A stretch of DNA of 64,000 nt from Azolla caroliniana (taxonomy: Eukaryota > Plantae > Polypodiophyta). Every line of letters begins with the position of its first letter. Position 1 is the first letter of the stretch. The position numbers and the translations under genes are program-made. Positions 3,215 through 57,308 of the stretch are shown here, piece by piece. Location: contig JBHGNT010000011.1 of the NCBI GenBank assembly GCA_043228905.1, positions 1,612,001 to 1,676,000 on the forward strand, in the 5' to 3' direction. The notes under the pieces were generated by a model, which saw only the letters and a list, made by a program, of their open reading frames with translations, had not been told where the DNA came from and searched no databases.

Positions 3215-3292
3215 TACTGGAGCCGTCTTGGTACTAGAGCCGTCTTGGTACTGGAGCCGTCTTGGTACTGGAGCCGTCTTGGTACTGGAGCC
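3215..3292. repeat. 17-bp tandem repeat (TACTGGAGCCGTCTTGG) x ~4.6 inside gag of H
   Basis: Read directly. Sibling elements have a single copy. Confidence 0.9.
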
Positions 3293-3938
3293 TCACTAGC
3301 TTCCGGAATACCGAAACCCAGTTAACATCATTCTTGTTCTGGAACATGATGCTGATCTTCTCCCAGAGTTCATGAGCCTTACTTTCTTCATTGAAGTTGT
3401 TGTATAGGCTCATGTCGATGAAGCACCGGATGTATGCCGTCGTCTTCATGTGAATCACCTCCGACACTGTGGAGTCGATCTTTTCCGATCTCTTGTCCCC
3501 GAACTAAACCGGCAACCAAAGATCTTTGACCACCAGCATATCCCTCATTTTCGACTTCCACACTGAGTAGTTGGATCCGGTGAGCTTGAACATGCCGCCG
3601 AATGATTCTTCCATTTTCTATGTTGTTTGCTCTCATACTTGTTTGCGGGGAATAATGCGGAATATTGCTCGGCCACAACTGAGTCTTGAATCACAGAAAT
3701 GGGAATGAACAAGAGAGTACGGAGAAATGGCACAGGATGTTTACATGGAAAAACCCTAATAGGGAAAAAACCATGGGAGCCCATAGACTCCAATTATCAC
3801 TATATGAGAGGAAATACAAAGTGGATGCACAGAGGCAACGACCTCGTGCTCGCGATCTTCGCCAGACGGTGGTTACAACAGAGAGTGCTCGTAGCTACTC
3901 TCTGCATCTCTCGCTCTCTCTCTCCCTCCCTCCCCCCC

Positions 3939-4393
3939 TATTATAGATCTTGGTACTAACGTAAGCTTAAGATAAGGATAATGAAAAGATAGATAGAAAG
4001 GAGAAAGAGAAAGAAGGGTGCCGATCCACCCGACCACCCCCGAGCGAAGGGATCGAGACGGACTCGAGCCTCGATCGGCGTCCCATACCACCGCCGTGGC
4101 GTCGAGTCGTACCCGGTGCTGGCGCGCTCGCTACAAGAGTTGACCCACCACACGAGCAGAGTCTCGATGTAGTCCAAAGATGATCAAATGAGGGTAGCTA
4201 GGCCTCTTATTTATAGCGATACCCAAGGCCCCCAGGCAAGTTCACACTTGACCTAATGGGTTGTCTCAATCCCGAGGATTAAAAGTAATCCTCCCCTTCT
4301 TTACACTCTCGTTTAACCCTCACACTTATCCACGTGTATAGAATACTACGGTAAATTCTTACCACGGGATATTATATGGTCATGCTCGTAACA
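3939..4393 (-). mobile_element. Solo LTR (455 bp) with TSD CCCCC
   Basis: Ends T(A)TTATAG...CGTAACA, flanked by CCCCC at 3934-3938 and 4394-4398, inside the CT-rich tract of the H LTR. Confidence 0.75.
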
Positions 4394-4394
4394 C

Positions 4395-4444
<50 letters not shown>

Positions 4445-4498
4445 GCTCTCTCTATATACAGTAGTTATGCACATATAACAATATGACAATAACAAAAA

Positions 4499-7400
4499 TG
4501 TTGAGATACAAGCTCAACATTGGCCGGATCGGCTATGCAAGTTGAGAACCAGATTGGTTGGGGCCGATCGGTTAGGCCAGACCGGTGCGTAAAACGGGTG
4601 CGTAAACCAATACCAAACCGGTGCGTAACGAGAAGCCGTAGCGGTGCATAAACCGCGAGGCCGTTGGAAAGATACTCCGCGTAGGAATATATTTTGGGAG
4701 TTAGCGTAGAGCTCAGTTATGAGCATTGAAGTACGTGTCAGTACTTCTGTCAGTCCGTATGGACTTGTATAAAAATGCTCATTGAGCACATCCTATGTAC
4801 AGACTGAGTGATATTTTGAATTGAGTTTTTCTGTGTTCTCTCACTGTCTCTCCTGCATACTGTGTATACCCTAAGCTCTCCATTAAACTTGCGTATTCTC
4901 TGTGTTCGGTTTTCTATTGCTTCCGCACGTAATCTTTTTCATGGTATCAGAGCGGGAGGGTTGAGAACCTCTACAACCAACATAGCTTGAAAAGAAAAAC
5001 CAACCGATAAGAACAGGTAAAAACCGATGGATAGAGGCATGGCTAGCTCGCTTCCGACGGAGAAGCTCGACAGAAACAACTATGCATCTTGGTCCTACAA
5101 GATGCACCAGTACCTGCTCGGGCACGGTTATTGGAGCTATGTCGACGGAGCAAATGACACAGCACCCGAATAGACACACAGAGATTTTCCGGCGTGGGAA
5201 CAATCGGTGAGCAGAGTATTGTACTTCTTCGCGTCTTGTGTGGGCGAACATCTCCTAAGCTACATTCGGGATGCGAAAATGCCGAAGGATGCTTGGGGAA
5301 ATCTGAAGATGATTTTCACTGCAAGCACTACAGCTAGGAAGTTTCAACTCCGACAAGAGCTGAGCAACCTACGACAACGTGACTTGTCGGTGGCCGATTA
5401 CACCTCGAAGATCAAAGATATATGCGACACCTTAGCCTCCATCGATGTGAACGTCGAGGAAGGCGAGATGGTGCAGATCTGTCTGGGGGACTGGCATTGA
5501 AGTTTGGAGCATTCCGAACTGCTGTGTGTACATGGGAGAATACGCCGTTGTTTTCCGACCTACAATCGATGCTCCTTATAGAGGAAAACCACGCGGGTGC
5601 ATCGAAGAGCACGCATGCCGACAAAAACATGTTGTACACAGAGGGAGATAGGCCCCGTGGTCATGGCGGATGAGGCGAGTTGGTGCGCAATGGAGGCGGC
5701 CGACGGGACCAAGGAAGAAGGCACCGAAGTGATGTTGACAGCAACTCCAGACCCTCCGGAAATAGGGGGAGTCGAGGCAATGAGAACCGGCAAGGGAAAT
5801 CCTCCATGGAATGCTGGTACTATGGCAAGAAAGGCCACAGGGAGAGCGAGTGCTGGAAAAAGCGCGCTGACTCGGAGAGAACCGGGTTTGGATCAGGTTT
5901 CAGACAAAACGACAAGGGTAATTGGCAGCGATCGCACTACGCCGAGGGAGCCGAAAAAAGGTCAGTCTTCGTGACGAGACACGAAGCAAACTCGATGAAG
6001 AAGATCACCCCAAAATCAGACAAGGTGTGGTACGTCGACTCCGGCGCGTCAAACCACATGACGTGCCACAAGGAGTGGTTCTTGTACCTGGAAAAACCGA
6101 TGCAACCGGGAGTAGTAGCAACCGGAGACGACACTCCGCATCCGATCGCGAATGTCAGTGAAGTTCTCCTGAGCCATGTCGGGCAGAAAGGGAAACTCAT
6201 GAATGTGTTACATGTCCCGACAATCACAAAGAACCTGGTGTTGGTCGGGCAGATCGTTGACCAGGGGATGCAGGTTCGGTTTATGCATCTGGGGTGCTTC
6301 ATCGAGGAAGAAGGTTGTGTTATTACGCAAGGGCGCACAGATGGGAGGATGTTTATCCTCGACTCTAGCGACGGTGGCACCGCAATGTTTGCAAGAGGAC
6401 AAAAAGTTGAGTCGGATATTGACTTATGGCACAAGCGGATAGGCCACGTCAACTATCAACGGCTTCAGGACCTGCAATCGAAATAGGTGGTGTTCGGATT
6501 GCCCAAATTTTGTGGCCGGAAGGCACAAATTTGTGAAGCCTGCCAGCTAGGGAAGCAACACCGACTTCCTTTCCCAAACGAGCATAACCGGAGCCGGAAC
6601 AAGCTCAACTTGATACATTCCGATGTATGGGGGCCGACACAGAATGTTAGTCTTGGTGGGAGTTGATATTTCGTCTCTTTCATCGACGACTATACGCGGC
6701 GCACGTGGATCTACCTCATCGAGAAGAAGAGTGAAGTCTTTGACTGTTTCCGGGACCTCAAAGGGTTCGCGGAATCGGAAATAGGAAGAAAGATCAAGTG
6801 CCTATGGTTGGATGGCGGAAAAGAGTACTTTTCTGGTCAATTCAACGGCTATCTGCAACATATGGGAATTCGGCGCGAATTCAGTTGTAGATACACGCTG
6901 GAGCAAAACGGCGTGGCCGAGAGGAAAAATCGTTCGATTGTGGAAGCGGCATGGGCAATGCTGGAGGAAAAGGGCTTGCCCAAGTTCTATTGGGCCGAGG
7001 CGGTACGAACTGCAGTATACATCCAGAATCGGATCAGAGAAAAAGTGTCAGCGCATGAGCTGTATTTCGAAAGGAAACCAAATCTGCGGCACTTGAGAGT
7101 TTTCGGTAGCATCGCGTATGTGCACGTGCCGAACAAGAAATGGAGGAAGTTGGACAAGAAAGCCGAGAAGTGTATCTTGGTCGGTTACTTGGACGAGGAA
7201 AAGGGTTATAAGTGTTATAACCCTCACACCAAACAAGCGCGCGTGAGTCGTGACGCTATGTTTGATGAGTCCGCATCCTGGTACTTGCCTCCGACTCCAG
7301 ACCTCACCTCCAATCCGAATTCTGATGATGAGTTCAGCGAGGCCGAGATACCTCCAGATAAACCTGAAATCGGGACCCATGAAGAAAGTCCGATTTCGTT

Positions 7401-8924: not shown

Positions 8925-10932
8925 ACTTGCTTCAATCCGTATAAGCTCTTCTTTAGCCGGCATACCAGGTGCTCCTTCCCTTTCCCCTCAAATCCTTCCG
9001 ATTGATGCATGTAGATCTCTTCTTCAAGGTCGCCATGCAGGAATGTTGTCTTGACGTCCAGTTGCTCTACCTTGAGGTCCATGCTTGCTGCTATGCTCAA
9101 TACCATCTAGATGTATGTCATCTTTACTACCGGGGCAAAGATCTCATCGAAATCCACACCTTTCTTCTACTGGAAACCCTTCACCACTATCTGGGCTTTG
9201 TACCTTGGTGGATTTCCGGTGTCCCGGTTTCAGCTTGTACACCCACTTGTTCCGGAGTGCCCTCTTTTCTTTTGGGAACATTGTCAGTTCGTATGTATGG
9301 TTCTCATGCAAGGAATCCATCTCGTCCTGCATGGCATTCAACCACTTGGGGCTGTGGGTGTCTTTGTTTGCTTCTTCGAAGCTTTCCGGTTCCTCCTCAT
9401 CGGTCAACAATACGTGCTATGCATTTGGAAATCTCAGGGGGGGGGGCATTTTCTCTCTCTGAGAGGGTATCTTCGTCCTTGGTTTCTGACTACCAGTTTT
9501 TCCGTTTGTTCCTCATTCGAATCCAATTCGGGATCTCGTCCGGTTCCAGTGTCTTCATCTTCTTGTTCTTGTTATTCTTCGGTCTGTTCAGTTTCTTGCC
9601 CGAATCCGGCCGGTTCGTCGAGTGTCATCCGGTTACTGGCTAACATCTGGTTTTCAACTGGATAAGTCCTTGTGTCCTCAAGCCGGTTTTCATTGGATGA
9701 TCTGGAGTTCATCACCTTCTTCTCCGACTCCCAGTTAGCAATGGTCCTGTCTTCCATGAAGACTATGTCCCGACTTTGGAACACCTTCTTGTCGACCAAT
9801 TCCCACACCCAGTAACCAAACTCATTATCGTCGTAACCAAGGAATATGCATGGCCTGGTCTTCGGATCTAACTTTGCTCTCTTGTCCTTTGTAACATGCA
9901 CATAGGCGAGACACCCGAACACCTTCAGATGCCGGTAAGATACATCTTTACCGGTCCATACTTTCTGCGGTGAGTCTCCTTCCAAGGGTGTTGAGGGTGA
10001 TTTGTTTATCACATAGGTCGCCGTCATCAGTGGCTTAGCCCAAAACGTCTTGGGTAACTTTGCATGTGCCATCATGCTCCGGACTCTCTCCATCATGGCC
10101 TGGTTCATCCGTTCAGTCAGCCCGTTCAATTCCGGTGTCTTCGGCACAGTGAATTTGAGTTGGATTCCCTTCGATCGATAGTACTCCTTGAACTACCCCC
10201 AGTATTCTCCTCCATTATTAGCTCGAACCGCCTTCAATTTCCGGCCAGTTTCTCTTTCCACTCTCACGTGGAGCTCCTTGAAGACGGATAGCACTTGATC
10301 AGGTGATCCTTTGTCTTGAGCGGGGAGACTCACAGCTTCCGGCTGTGGTCGTCTATGAACGTCACGAAGTACTACGATCCGGCATGTGACTTTGTGTCCA
10401 CTTGACACACATTGGTATGCCCTAGCTACAGTGGTACATTGTTACCCGGACAAGTGGGGAAGTGTCGGAGTCAGAAATGAAGAAGGTTCGGAGTCGGAGT
10501 CGGATTCGGATCGGTATAGAGGATTGATAAGTCAACATCTGGCCGAAGTAAATTAAAATAGAAATTATAAGTTAGTTAAAGATTTTGTAGTTCTTGCCAT
10601 GTTTGGCAATATGTTTTCTTGATGAGGAAGTCCTTCTGGTTGCCTGTAAAAGGAACCGAAGGCAGTGTAAAGAGTTATCATTTTATTTAGTAATATAAAG
10701 TTAGTTTAGGAAATCTCTGTGTACGAAACGTTCTGTCAATCTATTTCCTTTCTGTTATAACTTGTTACGTAAATAGCGATCTCGATGCTTGCTGAACATA
10801 GATAAGTTTAGAATCATTTTTAGTATCTATTTCGTCTAAAGCACAACTCATTGATAAAACATTCAATGAGCAACGTTCGACCTATACTGTGTCGGCAATA
10901 GTTATTGTCGACCGAACAACACAGTATAATTT

Positions 10933-10945
10933 TGGCATGCCTGGT
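10933..10945 (+). promoter_or_regulatory. Primer binding site of F (tRNA-Arg-like, C>T decayed)
   Basis: TGGCATGCCTGGT resembles TGGCACGCCCGGT and lies 11 nt after the 5' LTR. Element J has a similar TGGCACGC PBS. Confidence 0.6.
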
Positions 10946-10979
10946 TACATCTGAAGCTAGTAGAGAACAAGTCGAATGA

Positions 10980-13369
10980 ATGTCGTCTGCTCCAGATACA
11001 CCAGTCAGTTGTAAATGTCCTCGTACACAATCGATTACGAAGACACTAGAAAAAGATTCGGCTGCAAAGTTACAACCAGAAACAAGTAGAAGGTGGTCTA
11101 CGCTCCCGGATTTAACTGATAGTCAATTGGATGAAAATCAGGAGGAGGAGATATCATTTTACGATATCTAGAGTGAAGACAATATGCCTTACCCATATTC
11201 TAAATTTTAGGAAGGTGCTGATGCAGAATCGCATATTAGGGATTTCTTGACAACATGGGAAATTAACCATGGAGCTCAGAGACTATCGACAATAGCCGAA
11301 GATAAATTTAAAATTGTTGAGTTTGTTTTGTCATTAGATGGTCAATTCGCTAATTGGTTTGCGCAAAATGGTTTCCATGCATTCGAAACATTTGAACAAT
11401 TAAATACCAAATTTCTGTAATTATTACATCGTCAGATTCCTCAAAAGGATCTGATAGCGCAATTTTATGCGTTGTATCAGGAGCCGCATGAAACAGTGTC
11501 TCAATTTGTCATTCGTTTTCAGAATTTACAACTCCAGATTTCCAGGCCTATTCTGGACAATGAATTGAAGGATGTATTCCTTGAAGCAATTCGTGAACCA
11601 TTACGAACAACATTAGTAGTGTTCGATTTCCAGAATCAGATGATCGAGCAAGTGATTGATAAAGCAATCGCTATGGGCCGGAATCCGAAAAATGTAAGGA
11701 GTATGGATATGTCGGCATTACATAATACCTTCCCAACTCGGGAGGAGTTGCAATTTCGACAAGTGGTTCAATGTACGACTTGTTTGAATACTGGGCATTT
11801 GGGAATAGAATGTAGTTTACGAACACATTGCACAATATGTCATTCTAAACTTCATTCGGTCGAGCAATGTGAATATAATCTTCTTAACAAAACAACGACT
11901 CTGGTACGGCAAATTTTTCCGAAAAATGGGTACCAGAATAACCGGCATATATTCAATAATGGGTACCAAGAAACCGCTCGACAAAATAATTATCAACAGA
12001 ATCAAGATTTTTTGGCGGCACAAGATAACGACTATCAACAACACAATGGAGGTCAGTTTAAACAAAATCACTATAAGAATAAAAAATTCTATAAGCAAAA
12101 AGCGTCACGACAATTTCAACAACCCCCAGATTCTAATGAAGATGGAAACCATTAGTTTGCGCTAGGCGAAGGGAGTGGAACATTTGTTCCTACCTACTAT
12201 ATTTGCCGATAGGAGGGACATTATGCAAATCAATGTTCGTCTAAAGGAAAAGGAAAAACACTGGCTATGCACATGGTCATGCCGGAAATTCAGCAAGTGA
12301 CCACCAGAAGTAAAAGTAAACAATCATAGTGGGAAATTTAGGAAGCTGTTCAGAAAGTAGCCAAGGAATGGGTAGAAGAAGCGAATAAAAACAATGTGTC
12401 CCGAATGCTCCAAGATAATGAGATTAATCAAGCTAATGAATTGCCCGGAGTTATGGCCATACCAGAACAAGAAGAAACTTGGAAAATTTTGGCGGATTGC
12501 CAAGTATCATTACCTTTGACGGGATTACTCAAACTAGTTCCTAGGTTCACAAAGAAAGTGGCGACGTTAATTGCCCAAAAAGGGACAGAACAAGTAGATG
12601 TTCACTATAATCAGCCAAGCAATAATCCTTCAATTATGGATGAACAAAATCCTTCTATTAAGGTCATAATCCATGGAGAAGAGATAGAAGGTGCTATTGT
12701 CAATGGTGGCTCAGGCGTGAATGTAATTAATAGAACTACTTGTGATAGGTTTGGCATTACCAAATGGGAAGCATGCCCATTTTGGCTAAGGATGGCTGAT
12801 ACTAGTACGATACGACTAATCGGGTTGCTGCGGCAGTTGGATGTCGTATTAGGAGGTCACACTTTTCAAATATCAGCAGTGGTGCTTCATTTGGAAGCTC
12901 TTGGAGCATATCCTTTGCTATTAGGTCGACCATGGTTAAAAACTGCTAATATTAAGAAAAATTGGAATAAGAATTTATTAACATTCCGAAAAGGCAAGAA
13001 GAAAATCCGGGTATCTACTCAGAATAAGATTATGACGAGCAAACAATGTTTGCCAATTCATGCGGAGGCTGTAAATATGATGGAAGGACTAGATGAGGTC
13101 GAAGAGAATCATTATTTTAATGATAACCCAAAAATTATCCCTTTGTTCGAAGTAGACATTTACAAGCCCTGACATCGTACATGGATTCACAAGAGGAATT
13201 ACCATTAGACGAGCAAACAATGAAAGAAATCCGAATGCAGCAGGAAGCTACCGAAAGAGAAATGAAGGTATCTCAACGGGTTTAGGCATTGGCATTGGAG
13301 GAAGTAAATTTGGCAGGAGATGATAAGGGGTTTGAACCAAAAACAGTGTTCGTAGCTAAAGATATGAGA
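10980..13369 (+). pseudogene. gag-protease of gypsy F
   Basis: Retrotrans-gag-like QEPHETVSQFVIRF, zinc knuckles CTTCLNTGH..C and CTICHSKLH..C, protease AIV(N)GGSGVNVI...LLLGRPWL. Confidence 0.8.
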
Positions 13370-14305
13370 GTGGCGGAAGCTAGAGCCGAAAAAGCTAAAA
13401 TCCGATCCAAGAAACTGGAGGATCGGATACAACTGGCAAAAACATAAATCGGAAAATGGCTCGATGCAAAGGATGAATTAATTCAACAACTGCGCCAAAA
13501 GTTAGCATAGTAGTAGGAAGCCACGCGCCAAAATGCTGAGCAAGTGGAGGAACTTGAAGAATATGTAAATGTACAAACATAATATTTTGCGGAAGAGATG
13601 GTTGGAAAAGACACCTTGTTGAAGGACATCAATGAAAAATATAACAAACAACAAGAAGAATGGGAAGTTCTCGAAAGACGGTGTTCAGAAGTAGAAGACT
13701 TGTCTGAAAAAAGGCGACTTGATCTATTACTCGCACAAAACAAGCTTTTGCAGACAGAAGTAGAAAATAATGCTCAAATTGATGATTTACGAAGAACATT
13801 GGCAGCAACACAGTTTCAGGCAAGTATAACCGAGGAAAGAATTCGAGATATCCTAAGACACCATAAACTTAACACCTTGAAAATGGTGAATGAGTCCATC
13901 AATAAGGGATGGAAAGCCTAGTCAGCACAAGCAATCGAGCTTCAGTTGTTACAGGCTAACAGAGACAATAGGAAGGCTCATGGCCAAGGTTTCTTCAAGA
14001 TGACGGAAGAAGCAATATCAACTATTCAGGAGGATATTGCTAAAGACTTGTATGAGATAGCAACGTGTCACCGAGAAGAAGTTAGTCGAATTATGAAAGA
14101 ATTTGACAAACATGATGTCGACATAGTTGTCCAACTAGATAACCTTCAATCCGAAAGGCGAGATCAGACCCCAGGACTTGAAGCACCGGCAACAGAGAAA
14201 CCAAGACCACTGGCCGCAGATACAAACATGTTTACAGAAACCGAAGACAGACGAAGAAGACATGCAGCAACCCGAACCTTCATTGTTCGATATTCTGCAA
14301 GATGA
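13370..14305 (+). pseudogene. Extra coiled-coil-rich ORF of gypsy F, in frame with the end of the protease spacer
   Basis: One E/K/Q/L-rich reading frame interrupted only by TAA/TAG (e.g. TAGTAGTAG near 13508). ORFs 13598..13921 and 13946..14305 share this frame. Confidence 0.65.
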
Positions 14306-16609
14306 TGCATGAGGATCAATTAGATGAGGACCTTCCTTCGGACCAATAGGAGTAAAAGGATACCATGGGGTTCGCCGGACAAAGCCCTGGCCCACGGGCG
14401 TGCCATGTGTTACCCGGACAAGTGGGGAAGTGTCGGAGTTGGAGTTGGATTCGGATCGGTATAGAGGATCGATGAGTCAGCATTTGGCCGAAGTAAATTA
14501 AAATAGAAATTATAAGTTAGTTAAAGATTTTGTAGTTCTTGCCATGTTTGGCAATATGTTTTCTTGATGAGCAAGTCCTTCCGGTTGCCTATAAAAGGAA
14601 CCGAAGGCAATGTAAAGAGCCATCATTTTATTTAGTAATATAAAGTTAGTTTAGGAAATCTCTGTGTACGAAACACTCTGTCAATCTATTTCCTTTCTGT
14701 TATAACTTATTACTAAATAGCGATCTCGATGTCTGCTAACCATCGATAAGTTTACAACCATTTTTAGTATCTATTTCGTCTAAAGCGCAACTCATTGATA
14801 GAACGTTCAGTGAGCAATGTTCGACCTATACTATGTCGGCAATAGTTATTGTCGACCGAACAACATGCATTCCGTCTCATCCGTGGTCTTGAGCGGAAGG
14901 AGGTTCGGTTTTGTTTGCCAGCCAAGCAATCGGTGCACTTCTCAAGATGCACACCTTTTACCTCCGGAATGAGGTTGTCTTCGGCAAGTCTTCTCATCCC
15001 CCTTCTGGCTTATATGACACAGTCCCTTGTGCCACAACTCACAGGCAATGTCGGATGCTACGTTCACTTCTTCTCGGAATATCCGGGTAAGGATAAGGTA
15101 AAACGTGTTGATCTTCCGGGCTCGACTCACGATCAAGCTTCCTTTGCTGAATTTCATGACTCCGTTCCAGATGCTACCCGTGTAGCCTTCATCATCTAGC
15201 TGACCGACTGATATTAGGTTCAACTGAACGTCCAGAACATGTCGGACTTCTTGCAGCAGCAACTTGCATCTGGTTGATGTTTTCAACAACACATCTCCTA
15301 TGCCAAAAATTCGGCATGTACCTTCATTCCCCATACAGACACAACCTTGATCTCTGGCTATGTAGGATGAGAAGTTTTTCTAGTCCGGTGTTAGATGAAA
15401 CGATGCTCCGGAATCGACAACCCATGTTTTCTCATCACCAACAAGGTTTAACTCATTCTCCTCAGTAATGAGAATGAGTTCTTCTTCACTTGTCGCAATT
15501 GCTGATGTTCCCTTCCGATCCAAACCGTTTTGGTTTGAACTGGCATTGTCGGCTCCTTTCTCTTTCCGAAAATGCCAACAATTCTTCTGGAAGTGCCCCG
15601 ACTTCCCACAATAGAAGCAAGTAGGCCTCCCCCTTGACTTCGATCTCGTCCCCGATTTGTCCCGGTTTTGGGGACTCTGATACCGGCCTCTTCGCTGGTA
15701 ATGGTCATCTTCCGTGACCAAGGCCTTCGGATCGGTTCCGGACTCCCGGTCCTTCCAGCGAGCTTCTTTTGGCCCGGTGTTGCCCAACGTGACAACTAAC
15801 GTCTCCCAACTATCCCGGAGGGAACCGAGCAAGAGCAATACGAGTACCTCATCTGCGAGAGGTACTTCCAACGAGGTGTCTTGGTTTATTAGCCCCTGGA
15901 AGGCATTCATGTCCTCCGCCATACTGCAACTGTCTTGGCACCGGAGCCTCACTAACTTCTGTAATACTAAAACCCGATTAATGACATTTTTGTTTTGGAA
16001 CATGATGTCGATCTTCTCCCAGAGTTCATGAGCCTTACTTTCTTCATTGAAGTTGTTGTACATGCTCATATCGATGAAGCACCAGATGTACGTCGTCGTC
16101 TTCATGTGCATAACCTCCCATGTCGCGGCATCGATCTTATTCGGTTTCTTGTCCCCAAACTGTACCGAGAACCAAAGATCTATAACCACCAACATGTCCC
16201 TCATCTTCAACTTCCACACGAAGTACTTGGAGCCGGCGAGCTTGAACATGCCGCCGAACGACTCTTCCATTTCTTGTGTTGTTTGTTCTGATACCAGATT
16301 GACCAGATTGATTGGAACTAGCGCGGAAGTATTGCTCGGCCACAACTGAGTCTCAAATCACTCTATGAAGGACCAAACACATAAATGGGAAATAGGTATG
16401 ATGAATGTATGTACACAAAACAACGATAGAGAATACAGGATGTTTACATGGAAAAACCCTAATCGGGAAAAAACCACGGGAGCCCACAAACTCCGAACTA
16501 TCACTATATGAGAGGAAATACAAAGTCGAAACATAGAGGCAACGATCTCGTGCTCGTGATCTTCGCCAGACGGCGGTTACAACAGAAAGTACTCGTAGCT
16601 ACTCTCTTG

Positions 16610-18100: not shown

Positions 18101-20900
18101 CAGAGCGATACTCTATTGTAACCACCACTGTATGAAGACACAGAGCTCAAGGTTATTGCCTCCGAGTCTCTGATTGTATCCCTTCTCTTCATAGTGATAG
18201 TTCAAAGTCTATAGGCTCTCGTGGTTTTTCCCTATTAGGGTTTTCCACGTAAACATCCTATGTCATTTTCTTGTGTACTCTCCACTTCCCATTTCTGTGT
18301 TTGATTCTTTTGAGAAGTGATTTACTACTCGGTTGTGGCTGAGCGATATTCAACACATTTCTCTTCAAATTGGTATCAGAGCGAACAACATAGGAAATGG
18401 AAGAATCTTACAGTGGCATGTTCAAGCTCACCGGCTCCAACTATCCAGTGTGGAAGTCGAAGATGAGGGACATGTTGGTGGGTAAAGATATTTAGTTGCC
18501 GGTTCAGTTTCAGGACAAGAGACCGGATAAGATCGACACCACAGTGTGGGAGGTGATGCACATGAAGACGACGACATACATCCAGTGCTCCATCTACATG
18601 AGCCTGTACAACAACTTCAATGAAGAGAGCAAGGCTCATGAACTCTGGGAGAAGATCGGCATCATGTTCCAAAACAAAGAATGTTGTTAATCGGGTTTTG
18701 GTATTTCGGAAGCTAGTGAGGCTCCGATACCAAGATGGCTCCAGTATGGCGGGCTGATACACCAAGCAACCTCAGTGGAAGTACCTCTCGCCGATGAGGT
18801 ACTTGCTCTACTCCTCCTCGGTTCCCTCCCGGATAGCTGGGAGACGTTAGTTGTCACGTTGGGCAACGCTGGGCCGGAAGGAAAACAACTATCCCTAGCA
18901 AGAGTCAAGTCGAGCTTGCTAGATGAGGAGGCGCGTCGGAAAGACAAGGAGGTGATCTCTGAAGCCAAAGCCCTCCGTACCGAATCAGAACGCGGAAGAC
19001 AAAGGAATCGGAATCCCCAGAACTGGGAAAAGTTGGGGACATGGTCAAAGTCAAGGGGGAGGCCCACTTGCTTCTATTGCGGCAAGCCGAGGCACTTCCA
19101 GAAGAACGATCGACATTTCTGAAAAGACAAGGGAGCCGACAGTACCGATTCGAAGAAGTCACCAAACCGAAACGGTTCAGATTGGCGAGGCCCGGATTGG
19201 AAGGGAACGACGGCAATCGTAGCAAGTGAAGAAGAACTAATGCTCATCACCGAGAAGAGTGAGTTGAACCTTGCCGTCGACGAGACAACATGGGTTGTCG
19301 ATTCCGGGGCGTCATTCCACCTTACTCTGGATTGGAAATGTTTCTCATCCTACACAGCCGGATAGGGAATGAAGGGACATGCCAAATTATTGGCATAGGA
19401 GATGTGCTGTTGAAGACATCAACCGGATGCAAGTTGTTTTGCTGAAGGATGTTCGACACGTTCGGGAGGTCTGACTGAACCTGATAGCAGTCGGTCGGCT
19501 AGATGATGAAGGCTACACATGTAGCATCCAGAATGGTGTCATGAAGTTCTGCAAAGGGAGCTTAATAGTGGCTTTAGCCCGGAAGGTCAACACACTATAC
19601 TTGATGCATGCTCGGATATGCCGGGAAGTAGTGAACGTAGCATTTGACATTGCCGGTGAGCTGTGGCACAAAAGACTGTGTCACATGAGTCAGAAGGGGA
19701 TGAAGAGGCTTGCCGAAGTCAACCTCATTCCGGTGAAGGAAGTGCAACTTGAGAAGTGCACCGACTGCCTAGCCAGCAAGCAAATCCGAACCTCCTTCCG
19801 GTCAAGACCACCGATGACACGGATTGCACCACTGGAGCTGGTGCATACCGATGTTTGTCAAGTAGACACGAAGTCACATGCTGGATCACAGTACTTCATT
19901 ACGTTCATTGATGACCACAGCCGGAAGCTGTGGTTCTCACCATTGAAGACGAAGGATCAGGTACTAACCGTCTTCAAGGAACTCCATGCGAGAGTGGAAA
20001 GAGAAACCGGCCGGAAACTGAAGGCGGTTAAAGTGGACAACGGAGGAGAATACCGGGGGCAGTTTGAGGAGTACTGCCAGTCGATGGGAATCCGGCTCGA
20101 ATTCATCGTGCCGAAGATGCCGGAACTAAACGGGGTGGCCGAAAGGATGAACCGGACCATAACGGAGAGAGTTCGGAGCATGCTCGCACATGCGAAGTTA
20201 CCCAAGAGGTTTTGGGCTGAGGCGTTGACGACGGCGACCTATGTCATAAACAAATCACCCTCAATACCCTTGGGAGGGGAATCACCTCATAAGGTAAGGA
20301 CCGACAAAGATGTATCTTACCGACATCTGAAGGTGTTCGGGTGTCTCGCATACGTGCATGTGGTGAAGGACAAGAGAGCAAAGTTGGATCCAAAGTCCCG
20401 ACCATGCAGATTCCTTGGATACGACGATGATGAGTTCGGTTACCTGGTGTGGGATCTGGTCGATAGAAAGGTGTTTCGGAGTTGGGACATAGTTTTCATG
20501 GAAGACAGGACCATTGCCGACTGGGAGTCAGAGAAGAAGGTAACGAACTTTGGATCATCCATTGAAAACCAGCCAGAGGACACAAGGACTTACCCGGTTG
20601 AAAACCGGACACTAGGCGGTAATCGGATGACACTCCACGAACCGGCCGGATACAGACAAGAAACCAAACTGACCGAAGAAGAAGAAGAAGAAGACACCGG
20701 AACCGGAGAAGATCCCGAATCGGATTCGGATTCAGAACAAATGGAGGAACCGACAGTCAGAAACCAAGGATGGAGATATCCTCTCTGGGAGAGAAGAGCC
20801 CCCCAAAGATTTCCAGATGCAGAGCATATGTTGCTAACCGATGAGGGGGAGCTAGAAAGCTTTGAAGAAGTAATGGGAGACACCCACAACAACAAGTGGT

Positions 20901-21314
20901 TGTTGGGATTTACGGTCCCTCCGGATGGGATGTCCGGAGATGAATGACGGCAAGCCCGGTTGCGGTTACGGAACCGGAGGATGAAGAGTACCCGGCATGA
21001 AGCCGGATGAAGAGTACCCGGCTACGGAGCCGGATGATGTAGACCCCGGGTACGGAGCCGGATGATGAAGACCCGGCTACGGAGCCGGATGATGAAGACC
21101 CGGCTACGGAGCCGGATGATGTATGTACCCGGAGAGAGATCCGGATGCGGGGACATATTTGTGAATATGTTTGCCAAGGGCCCTTGTGGCTATATTTGTA
21201 AATAGCCTGAAAGTCATATGTGTATAAATATGACTTAGGGCAAACTGTTTATTGCTGCTGTAAGTTGCTACTCATTTTTTCTGTTTTTCCACTTAGAGAG
21301 AGTGAAGAGAGCAG

Positions 21315-21345
<31 letters not shown>

Positions 21346-21615
21346 GAAGAGGTCGTTGCCTCTGTGCATTACCGCCGCCTGTGGCGAAGACAGTGAGCTC
21401 AAGGTGATTGCCTTGAAGCTTCACCATTGTACATCTCTGTTCATAGTGATAGTTGGAGTTTGAGGACTCCCGTGGTTTTTCCCGTATAGGGTTTTCCACG
21501 TTAATCCCTGTGTTATCGTGTCTTTCTCTGTGTGTCCTATTTTCTGCTGCATTGATTCGCGATTTGTCGGTTGTGGCCGAGCGGTGAAGGCGAATCGGAG
21601 CGTTGATTCGCAACA
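20901..21615 (+). repeat. 5' LTR of A (715 bp)
   Basis: Direct repeat of 25731-26443. TATAAAT at 21223. Confidence 0.97.
20972..21132 (+). repeat. ~27-bp CCGG-rich tandem array (~6 units) in U3 of A, repeated at 25802-25962
   Basis: Unit approximately GCCGGATGATGAAGACCCGGCTACGGA. Confidence 0.85.
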
Positions 21616-21618
21616 AAG

Positions 21619-21630
21619 TGGTATCAGAGC
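21619..21630 (+). promoter_or_regulatory. PBS complementary to initiator tRNA-Met
   Basis: TGGTATCAGAGC, 3 nt after the LTR end. Confidence 0.95.
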
Positions 21631-21646
21631 GACGGCAGTGCAGAAA

Positions 21647-24600
21647 ATGGAAGGCGGCAGCAGCGGGCAGCCGGGGATGATGGTGCTGAATGCGCAGAAC
21701 TACGCCGACTGGAAGATCAAGATGGAGGATCTTCTGATTGTTCGGGACCTGTACGAACCGATTGACAGGTCGGAAATACCGAAGGGGGTACTTGAGACGG
21801 AATGGAGGCTTCTGAACCGGAAAGCCGTTGCAACCATTCGGCAATACGTCGACGTGAGCGTTCTACAACATGTGGCGAACGACACCAACGCATACGAGAT
21901 GTGGCGGAAGCTGTCGGGCCTCTACGAGAGGAAGAATGCGTTGAACCGGACCTCCCTGATGAGGAAGATAGTGAACCTCAAGTACCGGGACGGTGAAAAT
22001 ATGGTGGAACACGTGAGCACGTTCATGGGATTCGTGAACCAGCTTGCGGCGATCAAGTTCCCGTTGGAGGATGCAATGCAAGCCATCATTCTGATGTGTA
22101 CATTGCCGGAAAGCTGGGAGAACTTGGTGGTGACTCTCAGCACCTCCTGCACCGAAGATAACTTGTCTCTACAAACGGTAAAGACAAGTATTCTAAATGA
22201 AGAAGCGCGTCGGAGAGATAAAGAACCGGCCACCGACTCGAAGGCGCTGCTTACCGAATCGGAACGGGGAAGACAATGGAACCGGAGTCCGCAAAGACGG
22301 GAGAAGTCGGGGACCCGGTCGCAGTCAAGAGGAAGACCCACATGCTTCCACTGTGGGAAGCCGGGGCACTTCCGGAAGAATTGTCGGCATTACCGAAAGG
22401 ACAACGGAGCCGACGACACCGATTCGAAGAAGTCACCGGAGAGAAACGGTGCATACCGGGGAGCCACGGGCCGGAGAGGTCCGGATCGGCGAGGGCAGGA
22501 CCGGAAAGGAACGACGGCACTCGCGGCAAGTGAAGAAGAAATAATGCTCATTACCGAAGAGAGGGAGCTGAACCTTGCCGGTGAAGAGATGACCTGGGTG
22601 GTCGATTCCGGAGCGTCGTTCCACCTGACCCCGGAGAAGAAATACTTCTCATCCTACATAGCCGGTGAGCACGGCTGTGTCCGGATGGGAAACGAAGGTA
22701 CGTGCCGGATTGCCGGCATAGGAGACGTGTGGTTGACAACCTCGACCGGATGCAAGATGCTGTTGAAAGATGTACGACACGTTCCGGAGGTTCGATTGAA
22801 CCTGATTTCGGCCGGGAGGCTAGACGATGAAGGCTACACGGGTAGCATCCGGAACGGTGTCATGAAGTTCAGCAAAGGGAGCCTGATAGTGGCTCGGGCC
22901 CGGAAGATCAACACACTGTACCTGATGAATTCCCGGCTATGTCCGGAGCAGCTGAACGTGGCAGCTGACACTGCCGGTGAGCTATGGCACAAGAGACTGT
23001 GCCACATGAGCGAGAAGGGGATGAAGAGGCTTGCAGAAGACAACCTTATTCCAGTGAAGCATGTGCACCTGGAGAAGTGCACCGATTGCCTGGCCGGTAA
23101 GCAGAACCGAACCTCCTTCCACTCAAGGCCACCGACGAGACGTAGCGCACCATTGGAGTTGGTGCACACTGACGTGTGTCAAGTAGAAACGAAGTCACAT
23201 GGCGGAGCCCAGTACTTCGTGACATTCATTGATGATCACAGCCGGAAGCTGTGGACGGCACCGTTGAAGACAAAGGACCAAGTATTGTCTGTCTTCAAAG
23301 AACTCCACGCGAGAGTGGAAAGGGAATCCGGCAAGGAGCTGAAAGCGATACGAGCGGATAACGGAGGAGAATACCGGGGGCAGTTCGCGGAGTACTGTCG
23401 CTCGAAGGGAATCCGGCTCGAGTTTACTGTGCCGAAGACGCCGGAACTGAACGGGCTGGCCGAGAGGATGAACCGGACCATAATGGAGAGGGTCCGGAGT
23501 ATGCTGGCGCATGCGAAATTACCCAAGGGGTTTTGGGCTGAGGCAATGTCGACGGCGACATACGTGATAAACAGATCACCCTCAGTACCTTTGGATGGAG
23601 ACACGCCGCAAAGAGTGTGGACCGGTAGGGAAGTATCCTACCGGCATCTGAAGGTGTTCGGGTGTCTCGCATATGTGCATGTGGCAAAGGACCGGAGAGG
23701 AAAGCTAGATCCAAAGACCCGGCCATGCATATTCCTCGGTTACGGCAACGACGAGTTCGGCTACCGAGTATGGGACCCGGTCGACAAGAAGATATTCAGG
23801 AGTCGAGATATCATCTTCATGGAGGACAAGACACTCGCCGACTGGGAGTCGGAGAAGAAGATGAAGAGCTCCAAGTCGACTGGTGAGGATCAACTCTACA
23901 AGGAGCAGTCCCGACCGGCAAGAGACCGGTTAGCACTCGAGGATCCGGCCGAAGACGGTGAAGAAACAGAACCGGCCGAAGAAGATGAAAATGATACCGG
24001 AACCGGCCCCGATCCCGAAATGGATTCGGATGAAGAAGAATCGGAAGAACCGGTTACCGAAGCTCCGGAACGGAGATATCCTCTAAGAGAGAGAAGGGCC
24101 CCCCGGAGATTTCCGGAACCAGAGCACGTGCTGCTAACCGACGAGGGGGAGCCGGAGAATTTTGAAGAAGCAGAGCTTGACACACATAGCCGCAGGTGGT
24201 TAAGTGCCATGCAGGAGGAGATGGATTCCCTGCATGAGAACCACACATATGAACTTGTGGAGTTGCCGAAAGGAAAGCGGGCACTTCGAAACAAGTGGGT
24301 GTTCAAGCTGAAACCGGGAGATGCCGGAAACCCCCCGAGATACAAAGCCAGGATCGTGGTGAAGGGGTTCCAGCAGAAGAAGGGCGTCGACTTCGACGAG
24401 ATATTTGCCCCGGTAGTGAAGATGACCTCCATCCGGACGGTGCTGAGCATAGCGGCAAGCATGGACCTCGAGGTAGAACAGATGGATGTGAAGACGGCAT
24501 TCCTTCACGGTGACCTCGAAGAAGAGATCTACATGCAGCAACCGGAAGGATTCGAGAAGAAAGGAAAGGAGCACCTGGTATGCCGGTTGAAGAAGAGCCT

Positions 24601-25720
24601 CTACGGTCTGAAGCAGGCTCCTTGGCAATGGTACCGGAAGTTCGACTCCTTCATGACAGACGAAGGGTACCACAAAACGCAGACCGATCACTACGTGTTT
24701 GTGAAGAAGTTCGAAGGAGGAGACTTTCTAATACTCCTCCTGTACGTGGACGACATGTTGATCGTCGGACAGGACCAGGGCAAGATACGGATGCTGAAGA
24801 AAGCACTTCACCGAACCTTCTCAATGAAGGACCTGGGTCCGGCGAGGCAAATACTAGGGATGCACATCATCCGGGACCGGAAGAAGAAGCAGTTGTGGTT
24901 GTCACAGGAGAAGTACGTGACAAAGGTGCTTCACCGGTTCAACATGTCGGAAGCAAGGCCGGTCGGATCGACCCTCCCGGCAAACTGCAAGCTGTCCAGG
25001 AAGCAAAGCCCCAAGACAAAGGCTGAGAAGGAGGACATGATGAAAGTACCATATGCCTCTGCCGTCGGGAGCTTGATGTACGCGATGGTGTGTACCCGAC
25101 CGGACATAGGATATGCAGTCGGAGTGGTGAGCCGTTACATGAGCAATCCCGACAAAGAGCATTGGAACGCGGTCAAATGGATACTCCGATACCTGAAGGG
25201 CACGGCAAACATGTGCCTCCGATTCGGCTCCGGTAAGCCCGAACTCGATGGATTTACCGATTCGGATATGTCGGCTGATGCAGATACCAGCCGGTCCACA
25301 TCAGGGTATGTGATGACGTATGCAGGGGGAGCTGTTTCATGGCAGTCGAGGCTGCAGAAGACGGTTGCACTGTCAACCACGGAGGCGGAGTACATGGCGG
25401 CTGTTGAAGCCGGCAAGGAAATAATATGGATGAAGGACTTCATTAGAGAGCTCGGTATCCGGCAGGTGGAGTACCGACTCTACTGCGACAGTCAGAGTGC
25501 CATCCACCTTGCGAAGAACGCGGCCTATCACTCCCGGACGAAGCACATCCAGCGAAGATATCACTGGATCCGGGAAAGGATAGAAGACAAGGAGTTCGTG
25601 CTGACGAAGATCCACACGGACGAGAACGGGTCGGATATGCTGACTAAGGTACTTACACCCGACAAGCTGGAAGCATGCCGGAAGAGGATCGGATTGGAGA
25701 GACATCCCATGCCGAAGTGA
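21647..25720 (+). CDS. Gag-Pol polyprotein (Gag, CCHC knuckle, protease, integrase, RT, RNase H), 1357 aa
   Basis: First ATG after the PBS. Motifs CFHCGKPGHFRKNC, WVVDSGAS, LWHKRLCH, HTDV/DNGGE/NGLAE, LLLYVDDML, ALSTTEAEY and HSRTKHI in copia domain order. Confidence 0.95.
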   Translation: MEGGSSGQPGMMVLNAQNYADWKIKMEDLLIVRDLYEPIDRSEIPKGVLETEWRLLNRKAVATIRQYVDVSVLQHVANDTNAYEMWRKLSGLYERKNALNRTSLMRKIVNLKYRDGENMVEHVSTFMGFVNQLAAIKFPLEDAMQAIILMCTLPESWENLVVTLSTSCTEDNLSLQTVKTSILNEEARRRDKEPATDSKALLTESERGRQWNRSPQRREKSGTRSQSRGRPTCFHCGKPGHFRKNCRHYRKDNGADDTDSKKSPERNGAYRGATGRRGPDRRGQDRKGTTALAASEEEIMLITEERELNLAGEEMTWVVDSGASFHLTPEKKYFSSYIAGEHGCVRMGNEGTCRIAGIGDVWLTTSTGCKMLLKDVRHVPEVRLNLISAGRLDDEGYTGSIRNGVMKFSKGSLIVARARKINTLYLMNSRLCPEQLNVAADTAGELWHKRLCHMSEKGMKRLAEDNLIPVKHVHLEKCTDCLAGKQNRTSFHSRPPTRRSAPLELVHTDVCQVETKSHGGAQYFVTFIDDHSRKLWTAPLKTKDQVLSVFKELHARVERESGKELKAIRADNGGEYRGQFAEYCRSKGIRLEFTVPKTPELNGLAERMNRTIMERVRSMLAHAKLPKGFWAEAMSTATYVINRSPSVPLDGDTPQRVWTGREVSYRHLKVFGCLAYVHVAKDRRGKLDPKTRPCIFLGYGNDEFGYRVWDPVDKKIFRSRDIIFMEDKTLADWESEKKMKSSKSTGEDQLYKEQSRPARDRLALEDPAEDGEETEPAEEDENDTGTGPDPEMDSDEEESEEPVTEAPERRYPLRERRAPRRFPEPEHVLLTDEGEPENFEEAELDTHSRRWLSAMQEEMDSLHENHTYELVELPKGKRALRNKWVFKLKPGDAGNPPRYKARIVVKGFQQKKGVDFDEIFAPVVKMTSIRTVLSIAASMDLEVEQMDVKTAFLHGDLEEEIYMQQPEGFEKKGKEHLVCRLKKSLYGLKQAPWQWYRKFDSFMTDEGYHKTQTDHYVFVKKFEGGDFLILLLYVDDMLIVGQDQGKIRMLKKALHRTFSMKDLGPARQILGMHIIRDRKKKQLWLSQEKYVTKVLHRFNMSEARPVGSTLPANCKLSRKQSPKTKAEKEDMMKVPYASAVGSLMYAMVCTRPDIGYAVGVVSRYMSNPDKEHWNAVKWILRYLKGTANMCLRFGSGKPELDGFTDSDMSADADTSRSTSGYVMTYAGGAVSWQSRLQKTVALSTTEAEYMAAVEAGKEIIWMKDFIRELGIRQVEYRLYCDSQSAIHLAKNAAYHSRTKHIQRRYHWIRERIEDKEFVLTKIHTDENGSDMLTKVLTPDKLEACRKRIGLERHPMPK

Positions 25721-25728
25721 AGGGGGAG
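25719..25728 (+). promoter_or_regulatory. Polypurine tract of A
   Basis: GAAGGGGGAG, 2 nt before the 3' LTR. Confidence 0.9.
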
Positions 25729-25730
25729 TT

Positions 25731-26443
25731 TGTTGGGATTTACGGTCCCTCCGGATGGGATGTCCGGAGATGAATGACGGCAAGCCCGGTTGCGGTTACG
25801 GAACCGGAGGATGAAGAGTACCCGGCATGAAGCCGGATGAAGAGTACCCGGCTACGGAGCCGGATGATGTAGACCCCGGGTACGGAGCCGGATGATGAAG
25901 ACCCGGCTACGGAGCCGGATGATGAAGACCCGGCTACGGAGCCGGATGATGTATGTACCCGGAGAGAGATCCGGATGCGGGGACATATTTGTGAATATGT
26001 TTGCCAAGGGCCCTTGTGGCTATATTTGTAAATAGCCTGAAAGTCATATGTGTATAAATATGACTTAGGGCAAACTGTTTATTGCTGCTGTAAGTTGCTA
26101 CTCATTTTTTCTGTTTTTCCACTTAGAGAGAGTGAAGAGAGCAGCCGAGAGAGAGAGAGAGAGAGAGAGAGACGAAGAGGTCGTTGCCTCTGTGCATTAC
26201 CGCCGCCTGTGGCGAAGACAGTGAGCTCAAGGTGATTGCCTTGAAGCTTCACCATTGTACATCTCTGTTCATAGTGATAGTTGGAGTTTGAGGACTCCCG
26301 TGGTTTTTCCCGTATAGGGTTTTCCACGTTAATCCCTGTGTTATCGTGTCTTTCTCTGTGTGTCCTATTTTCTGCTGCATTGATTCGCGATTTGTCGGTT
26401 GTGGCCGAGCGGTGAAGGCGAATCGGAGCGTTGATTCGCAACA
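25731..26443 (+). repeat. 3' LTR of A (713 bp)
   Basis: Direct repeat of 20901-21615. Confidence 0.97.
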
Positions 26444-44115: not shown

Positions 44116-44534
44116 CTCTGGAAACTAAGGATGGACCTACTACTTGACTTGAAAGAGCTACTTGAAGTCACCACGAGAACTTGTCTAGCACCAAAAAATA
44201 CACAAAGTTTGAAATACTACTAAATGTCGAAGTTCTATGTACAAAGTTTTACACATTATTTGAATTTAGTTTTTTTGTGTTAAATCCCGCTCTGTGTCTC
44301 CCGCGTACATCGTGTCTTAAGCTCTCTATTAAACTTGTTTTTTCCTTGTTGGTATTATGTGTTTCTTATAGCTTCTGCACGTAACATTTCACAGATGCCA
44401 TTTGAAAACTTTAGTATTTGTTGGCCTTATGGCGTAAGCAAGGAGTGCGAGTGTATAACCTTCGACGGTTGAATAGTTAGGTTAAATAGGATGGTACCCA
44501 AAGAATAGTATAAAAGAGAATAGTCGAGGAGGCG

Positions 44535-44574
<40 letters not shown>

Positions 44575-44579
<5 letters not shown>

Positions 44580-45640: not shown

Positions 45641-46028
45641 GTAACATTTGAGAGACTTGAACCCATAACCTCAGTTACCAAGGACGAAGCATAAACCATT
45701 AGGATAAGTTATTTCATAGTAATATTTTTATCATCATACTTATGACATGTGTATCTTCATACATAATTAGAGCTTAGATGAGCATGATGGCTATCATGCA
45801 TCACATGTAAAGGATGTGCGCCAAATGGCGATCATGCATCACATGCATTCCATGCATGCCATGCACCCCCATATCATCATATGCATGAGAGAACCTATAA
45901 GAGAGGCGAGGATTAAGGGACGAATAAAGGGAAAATAGGGTAATCAATGAAGAAGAAAAAGTAAGAAATCAAATAATATAATTGTCAAAGTTAATATGCG
46001 GAAGCGTATGACAAACCAGCTCAACCGG

Positions 46029-47638: not shown

Positions 47639-47826
47639 CCAGATACCAACAGAACGTAGAGAAGAAGGTTTAATGGAGACGTTACACAGAGAATACACCG
47701 GAAAGACAAAGAGAGCAGGACATAAAATCAATTAAAAAATAATGATCCTCTATACATAGAATGTGCTCAGAGAGCACTTTTATACAAGTCCATAAAGGAC
47801 TAACATAAGTATTGACAGGTACTTCT

Positions 47827-48690: not shown

Positions 48691-48699
48691 CTAATCAAT

Positions 48700-50000: not shown

Positions 50001-50051
<51 letters not shown>

Positions 50052-54542: not shown

Positions 54543-54550
54543 TGTCGCGT

Positions 54551-55005: not shown

Positions 55006-55007
55006 GT

Positions 55008-57308
55008 CTGTAAAATTTGCGGAGACGCTTACCCTAGGTCTGCCCGTTATACGATCCTCCACGGCTTGGCGGAACCGTGGGACTAGTTGAAGTAGCTTCC
55101 CCATGGTTAGCGTTATCTCATAGCCTGTCAGTGCTTGCTATATGGGATCCGGAGATATTACATCTTCTTCCGACGACTCCACCGTGTTTGTGGACTCCTT
55201 CCGCATGCGTTCCGTATTTCCCGCATTTGCTTTTTCAACCCATGCTTGGGCCGTCTAACGTATCTCATCTTGCGCGGCCCAATCAACATTTTTTGTTTGC
55301 TGTCTTGTCGTCACTTGTTGCACTTCCGCCGTAATCTTATTGACGGCAGGCCCCTTGCACTTGCGTAATGGGCATTGCGTGGCATAATGTCTAGGTTGTT
55401 GGCAAACAAAACAATGGACGCTAGATTCGCCTTTCTCGGCAACTGGTGGTGTGTGCCCGTCCCCAAGTGTGACTTGCTCCTCCCGGTCCTAGTTCATTCT
55501 TCAGAGCATACGCGGTGGTTGTTGTTGGTCCCGGCGTAGTTCCTGGTGCCGATCATCGTCCGAACATTCATCGTACCACCGTTGGTTTCAATACTGGCGA
55601 TGTTTTCCTCGAGGCCCATTGAAGCCGCCCCATTTGTTTGTCAGACGGTAATTCTCATAGCGTTGGCCCCCTTTAGTATTTCTGTGGTTGCCACGGTAGT
55701 CTTCATCCTCCAGCTCGTCTTCCTCGGAATCGTTGTTATTCCGGCGATTCCGGTAGTGTCGGTCATCGCGTGGGTTCCGATCCATATACCAGGGTTGTTC
55801 TTCTTGCCGCCTTCGCTCATTACGGAGAGGGGGGCGCTATGTTTCCACACTGTGTACTATGGGCGTGCCTCTGTTCAACATATTGTACTCACACTGGTCG
55901 ACCGTGTGTGCCTTCGAGTGACAGATTGGGCAGTGGATTTGCATGTTGCATTCGACTGCGGAATGCCCCGAATTCAAGCAAATCGTACACTGGATTGCCT
56001 GGCAGAAGTGTCGTTCCTCGTCCTAAGGTAACGCTTGCCGTAATGAGGACAACCTTTCTTCTTTGTCGTCCAACTCGAGCTATAGCGCTCGTTCTATTAC
56101 CATGTCGGCCGTTTCTCCTTTTCACGCTATTGTTGTTGAGCGTCATCTGTATCGGTCATCGTAGAGTTGCCAGGAATGTCTCCCGAGCCTCGTCCTCCGT
56201 CGGTCCCCGTTCTAATTTCTGTCGTAGATTTTGGAAGCGTAAACTGTAATCCGCTACAGTCTCAGTCGGCAACTGTTTAATTGTATAAAACTGCCCGAGA
56301 ATTTCGTGTTGTGGCATCTACCAATGAAAGAAATGCAAAAAGGCCGACTGCAGCTGGTCAAAGGTCTTGATTGCTGGCAGATCCATCTACGAAAGCCAAA
56401 ACGCCGCTCTCCCATCCAGAGTTAATCCGAACTCTGTCATTTTGGACAGGTGCGCAACTTCTTCGGGAAGGCTCTGCGCGATGTGATTTGCATTCCAGAC
56501 ATTTAGGAACATGCGACTGTGGGTTGCGGCGTCAGTTTCGCCGTTGAAGTGGGGATACGAGAAGGACCATGGTGCTTGTGTGGTGAGTGAACTTTCTACC
56601 TGTCGCCAGGGTATTTGGTGAGAGGAAAGTCGTCTTTGTGGTCCCCACAGGTATCACTGAGGTCCCTGAGGCGAGGTTTTTGCCGTGCACGTTCCTTTGC
56701 CTAGCGGGTGATGGACCCTGTGATTGGTCGATCTTGTCATGTTGGTTCTCTGGGACGTCTGCGGCTAAACATCCTTTCGTCGTTGTTCTTCTGTGAGAAG
56801 ACACAGATCACCAAGCGTGCCAAAAGTGTTATCAATTAGGAACACGGTCTTCAGTTAGTCCTTCGACCTAGACCTCAAGGTTACTACGTTGCCACGAATG
56901 GTACCGTTGTACCGTAATACGTAATGGGATAACTCTCCGTATCCTAGTAGCATATAAGAGAGACGGCTACAACCGAACTCCCTAGACAGTGCACTAGTCA
57001 CAACACTTGCACTCACGCCTACGCCTCTTACGATTACAGTGTTTACAATACGCCACCAAGAATCACAGACACATAGTAGATTAACCACAGAGATGCATAG
57101 GATATTAGAGAAGGTAAAACTCTATTAAGATGTGCTCTATGCACCAAAATTTACACGCTACCTCTATCAGAGGATTTCTGCCCTTTATATACATAGGGTC
57201 TTTTAGCCGTTCACGCTTCCCGCGTGAACCGTTTACATGCATTACGTTTTTTACTATATTCTATATTTCTGTGCTCCTATCCTTCGGTTACTATTCCAAT
57301 GGACAACA
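55008..57308 (-). mobile_element. Ty3/gypsy J: 5' LTR 56827-57308, PBS and gag; inserted in the RT of K
   Basis: TGTT..AACA termini, PBS TGGCACGCTTGGTG (rc of 56809-56822), gag with knuckles. 55008-55594 is an inverted copy of 52896-53480. Confidence 0.8.

Follow-up and report, generated by a model that had tools for sequence, protein, structure and literature searches.

Priming of the plus strand from a polypurine tract (PPT) is held to be general for LTR retroelements and retroviruses, and annotation tools seek the PPT. Ty3 and HIV-1, in the available portions of two sources (PMC11381356, PMC13191261), exemplify the canonical scheme: TG...CA LTRs, 5-bp TSD-like flanks, a tRNA-type PBS and the order gag-PR-RT-RH-IN, all shared by the lineage described here, and a PPT, in whose place this lineage has a tRNA 3'-end copy. 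For plant elements, three primer types are described, all for the minus strand, and the PPT figures as the 3' feature (PMC6317226, Neumann et al. 2019, in the text accessible). The non-chromovirus Ty3/gypsy groups covered there (Athila, Tat/Ogre, Phygy and Selgy) resemble our lineage in having no chromodomain match, a tRNA-Arg PBS and an extra 3' ORF. Tat elements (TatI-III, Ogre and Retand), however, possess an additional archaeal-type RNase H (aRH), which had no match in our lineage, so the lineage is not Tat.

We analysed element F in a 64,000-nucleotide stretch of Azolla caroliniana DNA (the window). Its lineage carries a conserved copy of the 3' end of tRNA-Arg(UCU) in the PPT's place, 2 nt before the LTR. 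On sequence comparison, we think the chances slightly favour a second tRNA-Arg(UCU) that would anneal to minus-strand DNA at this site and prime the plus strand.

Element F and its 3' junction

Judged by its sequence, F (10440-14865) is a broken, dead and internally deleted non-autonomous Ty3/gypsy copy. Its LTRs (10440..10921 and 14408..14865, plus strand) run from TG to CA, the right end of the 5' copy being backed by the 3' LTR ends of loci L004 and L007, and they align with 430 matches and 28 mismatches, 24 of the latter transitions. Flanking them are TACAT (10435..10439, plus strand) and TGCAT (14866-14870), alike at four of five positions; F thus has the TG...CA LTRs and the 4-6 bp TSD of a Ty3/gypsy LTR retrotransposon. 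An 11-nt spacer (10922..10932) puts the minus-strand PBS 11 rather than 2 nt inside the LTR end, a spacing identical in L013. This tRNA-complementary stretch of about 13 nt (10933..10945, plus strand), of tRNA-Arg(UCU) type and reading TGGCATGCCTGGT, lies where the preliminary description had placed it.

The coding region has the plus orientation that the preliminary description had read from gag and the TATA box. Gag and protease, interrupted by stops and frameshifts, occupy 10980..13366, with 69-74% identity to the intact relative P0087 on the plus strand by tblastn and with Pfam support. Homology ends just before RT, and tblastn with P0087 found no match in F to RT, RNase H or integrase; F itself is gag-PR only, whereas P0087 and locus L014 have the full order gag-PR-RT-RH-IN, and intact RT, RNase H and integrase are present in P0086, P0087, P0089 and L014. 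The pol of the lineage matches Ty3 Gag-Pol at E 1.6e-92. A broken extra 3' ORF (13367..14350, plus strand), coiled-coil-like with an acidic tail, follows in F and is conserved in L001-L013; it matched no Pfam family and, in the Atlas, only low-scoring Streptophyta look-alikes.

Directly before the 3' LTR, positions 14389-14407 read GGCCCACGGGCGTGCCATG, with CCA at 14403-14405, then TG, then the LTR from 14408. Both the tRNA 3'-end mimic and the exact 2-nt distance of its CCA, as first reported from the letters of the window, are therefore present. The tRNA-like copy proper, one base short, spans 14391..14405, and a 2-nt spacer (14406..14407) separates it from the LTR; both are on the plus strand. 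No polypurine tract adjoins the 3' LTR as in a canonical PPT-primed element: over the last 25 nt, purine runs reach 3 at most. The same maximum of 3 holds for all 13 metagenome loci and for L014, against 10-14 in four controls: 10 in the copia element of the window and 12-14 in three outgroup gypsy elements. Allowing up to 3 mismatches, the 17-mer of the F site occurs once in the window (mean 0.07 in shuffles).

We took as tRNA reference the Arabidopsis tRNA-Arg sequences from the accessible supplement of PMC7827920, with CCA added and compared by eye; the host's own sequences may differ. Against this reference, the F site matches 9 of the last 10 bases of tRNA-Arg(UCU) and, after a one-base gap, CCCAC, the fit that the preliminary description had anticipated. 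It had also called the site the reverse complement of the element's own PBS type: the tRNA type is the same, and the match to F's own PBS is partial, with differences at CpG-type positions and a site 1 nt short.

In the F family, the likeness to the tRNA extends beyond the acceptor end. A 9-nt copy of the T-arm, GTGGGTTCG, stands 16-17 nt before CCCAC; it is exact in 8 of the 13 loci and has 1-2 mismatches, mostly CpG-type, in the other five and in F, where 14365..14374 is a decayed copy of the 5' strand of the T-stem and the start of the T-loop. Between the two parts lies a 16-nt insert (14375..14390), capable of a short hairpin, where the tRNA has 3 nt; all of these features are on the plus strand. 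In conventional tRNA numbering, the likeness ends at position 57 and resumes at 61, omitting 58. Methylation to m1A58 prevents base-pairing (PMC13191261, in the portion available). Downstream of four 5' PBSs, no complement of the T-arm was found (best, 2 mismatches). ARAGORN called no tRNA gene in the window or in 19 loci, and in L013 an Rfam search of the motif's surroundings gave no match with E up to 10. Sequence searches of the supplements obtainable for PMC6317226, PMC2533021, PMC7544208, PMC6016605 and PMC11658184 returned no usable match.

Read on the minus strand, the site looks like a PBS, and this raises the alternative that the packaged RNA is of either polarity or antisense, the site being the ordinary PBS of an opposite-strand transcript. 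The minus strand indeed has a textbook CA, 2 nt and TGG, better spaced than F's 5' PBS. Set against this, gag, pol and the extra ORF all lie on the plus strand, and a PPT would also be missing at the 3' end of the antisense genome, where the second strand would again need tRNA-type priming. We therefore consider an antisense genome highly improbable.

Two further elements in the window provide context. The related element J has a PBS of the same tRNA type as F (56810..56822, minus strand), 4 nt inside its LTR end; its 3' end was not found in the window. J is rearranged at 52896-55594: its gag-PR part is duplicated in inverted orientation (94% complementary), and at about 54543 its pol is interrupted by an LTR-like piece that is related to 43607-50219. 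The copia element at 20900-26029 is young, and stretches of its LTRs are 100% identical. It has an open frame of 1418 aa, a tRNA-Met-type PBS and a normal PPT, and it served as a purine-tract control.

The junction across contigs and in a distant relative

Contigs from public runs, aligned to the F junction, contain the tRNA-like site in abundance. Summed contig depth, which is not copy number, reached 149,000-169,000 at 14387-14414 in run X1, possibly the same source as the window, compared with 195 at 14343-14354 and 2,160-5,455 at 14423-14442. Runs X3, X5, X6 and X9 peak at the same place; run X8 yielded no contigs at the F junction. Because the plateau extends 7 nt into the LTR, it marks the junction and not tRNA genes. 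The differences inside it, among those listed, are transitions at CpG sites and the first base of the spacer, and several of the matches listed span extra ORF, site and LTR. Seven joints omit parts of the junction region; each occurs in a single contig per run, and most enclose unknown letters, so rare alternative junctions are possible.

Scanning metagenome contigs with a 22-nt motif found 13 loci, whose DNA shares about 64-73% identity with that of F. All 13 continue with AG and TGT, spacer and LTR start both lying outside the search pattern; F has TG in place of the AG. Among the loci, the upstream 60-mer takes 10 distinct forms and the LTR start 9; as loci selected by motif, they inform on position and context, not frequency. 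The preliminary description had asked whether other family members have a normal PPT at this position: the contigs and the 13 loci carry the site. The junction with the tRNA-like site is thus an abundant, conserved form and not a one-off. In two loci, L012 and L013, the order is motif, LTR, PBS and gag, as in LTR-sharing tandem copies or one-LTR circles; it is no evidence of such forms, because short-read assembly can collapse LTRs. Viral-contig scans gave no match to the motif, and protein queries confirmed 0 of 3 and 0 of 70 stretches. Two pattern matches proved unrelated: neither L043 nor L047 has a tRNA call, and L047 lacks LTR or pol homology.

Conservation of the site also bears on whether a displaced PPT does the priming. 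A purine-rich patch lies about 45-60 nt upstream, where purines fill as many as 12 of 13 positions in F, L001, L003, L004 and L013; priming there would be followed by trimming of the extra bases, and the tRNA-like piece would be the relic of a captured tRNA fragment. The patch, however, belongs to the acidic extra ORF, whose end it forms, and is variable (longest run 5-8; 9 of 13 purines in L014); nothing else in the region is as conserved as the tRNA-like site. Such a displaced tract has the lowest probability of the readings we considered and is scarcely credible.

When genome contigs were scanned by protein, 23 loci emerged, among them L014, found by protein alone and not by the motif. L014 is a full element: its LTRs are 93% identical, and its pol shares 56-57% identity with P0089, a close relative of F. 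Before its 3' LTR stand CCACCAGGTGTGCCA and then AG, without a purine tract, and its PBS, 2 nt after the LTR, starts TGGCGACTCC; both inner LTR borders read CA-CT-TGG, on opposite strands. The two sites are of different tRNA types. In the Arabidopsis reference, as far as its supplement is accessible, tRNA-Arg(UCU) matches the 3' site at 14 of its last 15 bases and tRNA-Arg(ACG) matches the PBS at 17 of 18; an exact complement of this PBS has also been published as a PBS primer (PMC7798630, in the part available). The exact T-arm 9-mer is absent, and an unrelated hairpin lies directly 5' of the site.

The surroundings of L014 are unusual. Its contig, from a prokaryote bin, joins a eukaryote-like retrotransposon to bacterial-looking DNA (GC 0.57-0.63, an ABC transporter frame) and is likely chimeric. 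Adjoining L014 is a chromovirus with a PPT (L044), where 12 purines stand before TG. One frame of L014 (8726-16057) runs about 1000 aa past the integrase without a stop, with a 75-nt tandem repeat region at its start, and the reading of the TSD is ambiguous by two bases.

Phylogeny places L014 with the F lineage. In a quick tree with a midpoint root, built from 48 rows (6 loci and 42 of the 120 listed proteins), L014, P0091, P0097, P0106 and the F-like and J-like polyproteins form one group of eight with an SH-aLRT of 100. The 3' junction was read for L014 and F's family only, making L014 the sole distant case. The purine-tract elements L015 and L016 (43-46% identical), with tracts of 13-14 nt soon after the integrase and unconfirmed LTR starts, fall outside this group in the same quick tree, in which the clade of F-like proteins and L014 also stands apart from the seed-plant rows. 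Among named proteins, the nearest are those of liverworts, ferns, a lycophyte, pine and angiosperms, which suggests a land plant as host, likely not a seed plant. P0087 has no chromodomain family, and the lineage, which groups apart from the chromoviruses in the quick tree, classes as non-chromovirus. Only RT-type RNase H families were found in P0087 and in P0085-P0091, and no aRH, the mark of Tat. The RNase H of the autonomous relatives, which the preliminary description had singled out for checking, retains all four acidic residues, aligned with those of Ty3. With these residues intact and no aRH, the loss of the PPT is not accounted for by a dead RNase H.

Routes to the plus strand

The tRNA types of L014 weigh against pairing between the site and the element's own PBS, which the preliminary description had offered as a second role for the site. 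Circularisation or dimerisation of the RNA through such pairing, like that of Ty1 CYC5/CYC3, with the plus strand started otherwise, draws on predicted PBS-site duplexes of -21.5 (F) and -25.0 (L013) kcal/mol and on the 5'-3' contacts known in Ty1 and Ty3 (PMC11381356, in the text available). The L014 site, though, is of Arg(UCU) type and its PBS of Arg(ACG) type, and their pairing is the weakest: -16.2 kcal/mol, compared with -23.0 for the same site with F's PBS and -26.3 with J's. Since it pairs better with the F and J PBSs than with its own, the site follows the tRNA type and not the element's PBS. Pairing of this kind would also leave the fixed 2-nt distance to the LTR and the missing PPT unaccounted for. 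We now regard it as very unlikely.

Dual tRNA priming, the principal proposal of the preliminary description, is the reading we favour, as an inference. The element RNA has the tRNA's own sense; the tRNA could therefore bind only minus-strand DNA. Once RNase H had cleared the genomic RNA, the minus DNA would expose a PBS-like stretch beside U3, and tRNA-Arg(UCU), whole or as a 3' fragment, would anneal to the complement of the site on the newly made strand. In the F family, the tRNA could pair in three blocks of 10, 5 and 9 nt; its T-loop positions 58-60 would stay unpaired, facing a 16-nt loop in the DNA. RT would begin extension at the CCA, and the tRNA would afterwards be cleared by RNase H, as with the first primer, which would leave a 2-nt end for the integrase. 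A plus strand begun from a CCA-ended primer starts 2 nt before TG, where a PPT primer ends. For F, which is without RT, RNase H and integrase, these enzymes would be needed in trans.

Several observations fit tRNA priming poorly. RNase H also acts on a tRNA that is paired with DNA, which counts against this reading. So do the difference between the F site and the Arabidopsis tRNA at 1 of the last 10 bases, the absence of the exact T-arm 9-mer from L014 and the 11-nt 5' spacer of the F family, which is left without explanation. Nor does pure tRNA annealing need the hairpin of the F-family site, where the one missing base creates a contiguous 7-bp pairing with upstream CCGTGGG (92.9% of cells paired). 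No covariation was seen in this hairpin, and the pair count is unable to show any because the 3' arm is fixed by the search pattern.

That hairpin is a point in favour of self-priming, in which the tRNA-like piece of the genomic RNA would survive RNase H, be cut after CCA and prime the plus strand as a PPT does, its tRNA likeness serving recognition by RT or RNase H. Position and end are those of a PPT primer, the one-base gap of the F family completes the 7-bp hairpin, and a second tRNA in the particle becomes unnecessary. The predicted folds of 8 of the 13 loci place the F-family site in a hairpin of 7-9 bp with upstream sequence, and L014 has its unrelated hairpin 5' of the site. Local folding of the F junction is, however, no better than shuffles, with hairpin energies at z -1.68 to +1.75. 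The Arg(UCU)-type site of L014 is independent of the Arg(ACG)-type first primer that its RT handles, and RNA that has been copied into DNA would sit in a hybrid, where a hairpin should give no protection. Self-priming, an idea absent from the preliminary description, is the strongest alternative and, in our assessment, unlikely.

A broader picture may hold: a whole plant Ty3/gypsy clade without a PPT, in which both strands would be primed by host tRNAs, by two arginine isoacceptors in L014 and, in the F family, at a minus-DNA site that would unfold the T-arm. We give this picture even odds.

Relation to known systems

The lineage-level feature is real and conserved, and it would be a novel variant of Ty3/gypsy replication if either leading mechanism, tRNA priming or self-priming, holds. 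In the literature searched, which takes in few subscription journals and is partly available, we found no description of an element in which a tRNA-type site stands in for the PPT. A PPT-less lineage that is successful and high in copy number would be a natural alternative route to the second strand and a direct system for studying what RT and RNase H require in the choice of second-strand primer. Even if self-priming is true, the primer would be a non-purine one, undescribed in the same partly available literature.

Three described systems share parts of this arrangement, each as presented in the available portion of its source. In the self-priming elements Tf1/Sushi, Tcn1 and TAR (PMC6317226), a piece of the element's own RNA replaces the normal primer, a likeness that bears on the self-priming alternative; there, however, the minus-strand tRNA is replaced, whereas in the F lineage it is the PPT. 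Sireviruses have an inverted repeat at the PPT/3' LTR junction (PMC2829016), a precisely placed structured motif at the same junction; they are a copia lineage that has kept and multiplied its PPTs, in contrast to the F lineage, which is gypsy and has none. The bipartite PBS of Ty3 and CYC5/CYC3 of Ty1 (PMC11381356) likewise place tRNA-related or pairing sequences close to the RNA 3' end, with pairing that goes past the last 18 nt of the tRNA. There, the sites in the RNA are the complement of the tRNA and act in minus-strand synthesis, and Ty3 has retained its PPT; the RNA of the F lineage, by contrast, carries its site in the sense of the tRNA.
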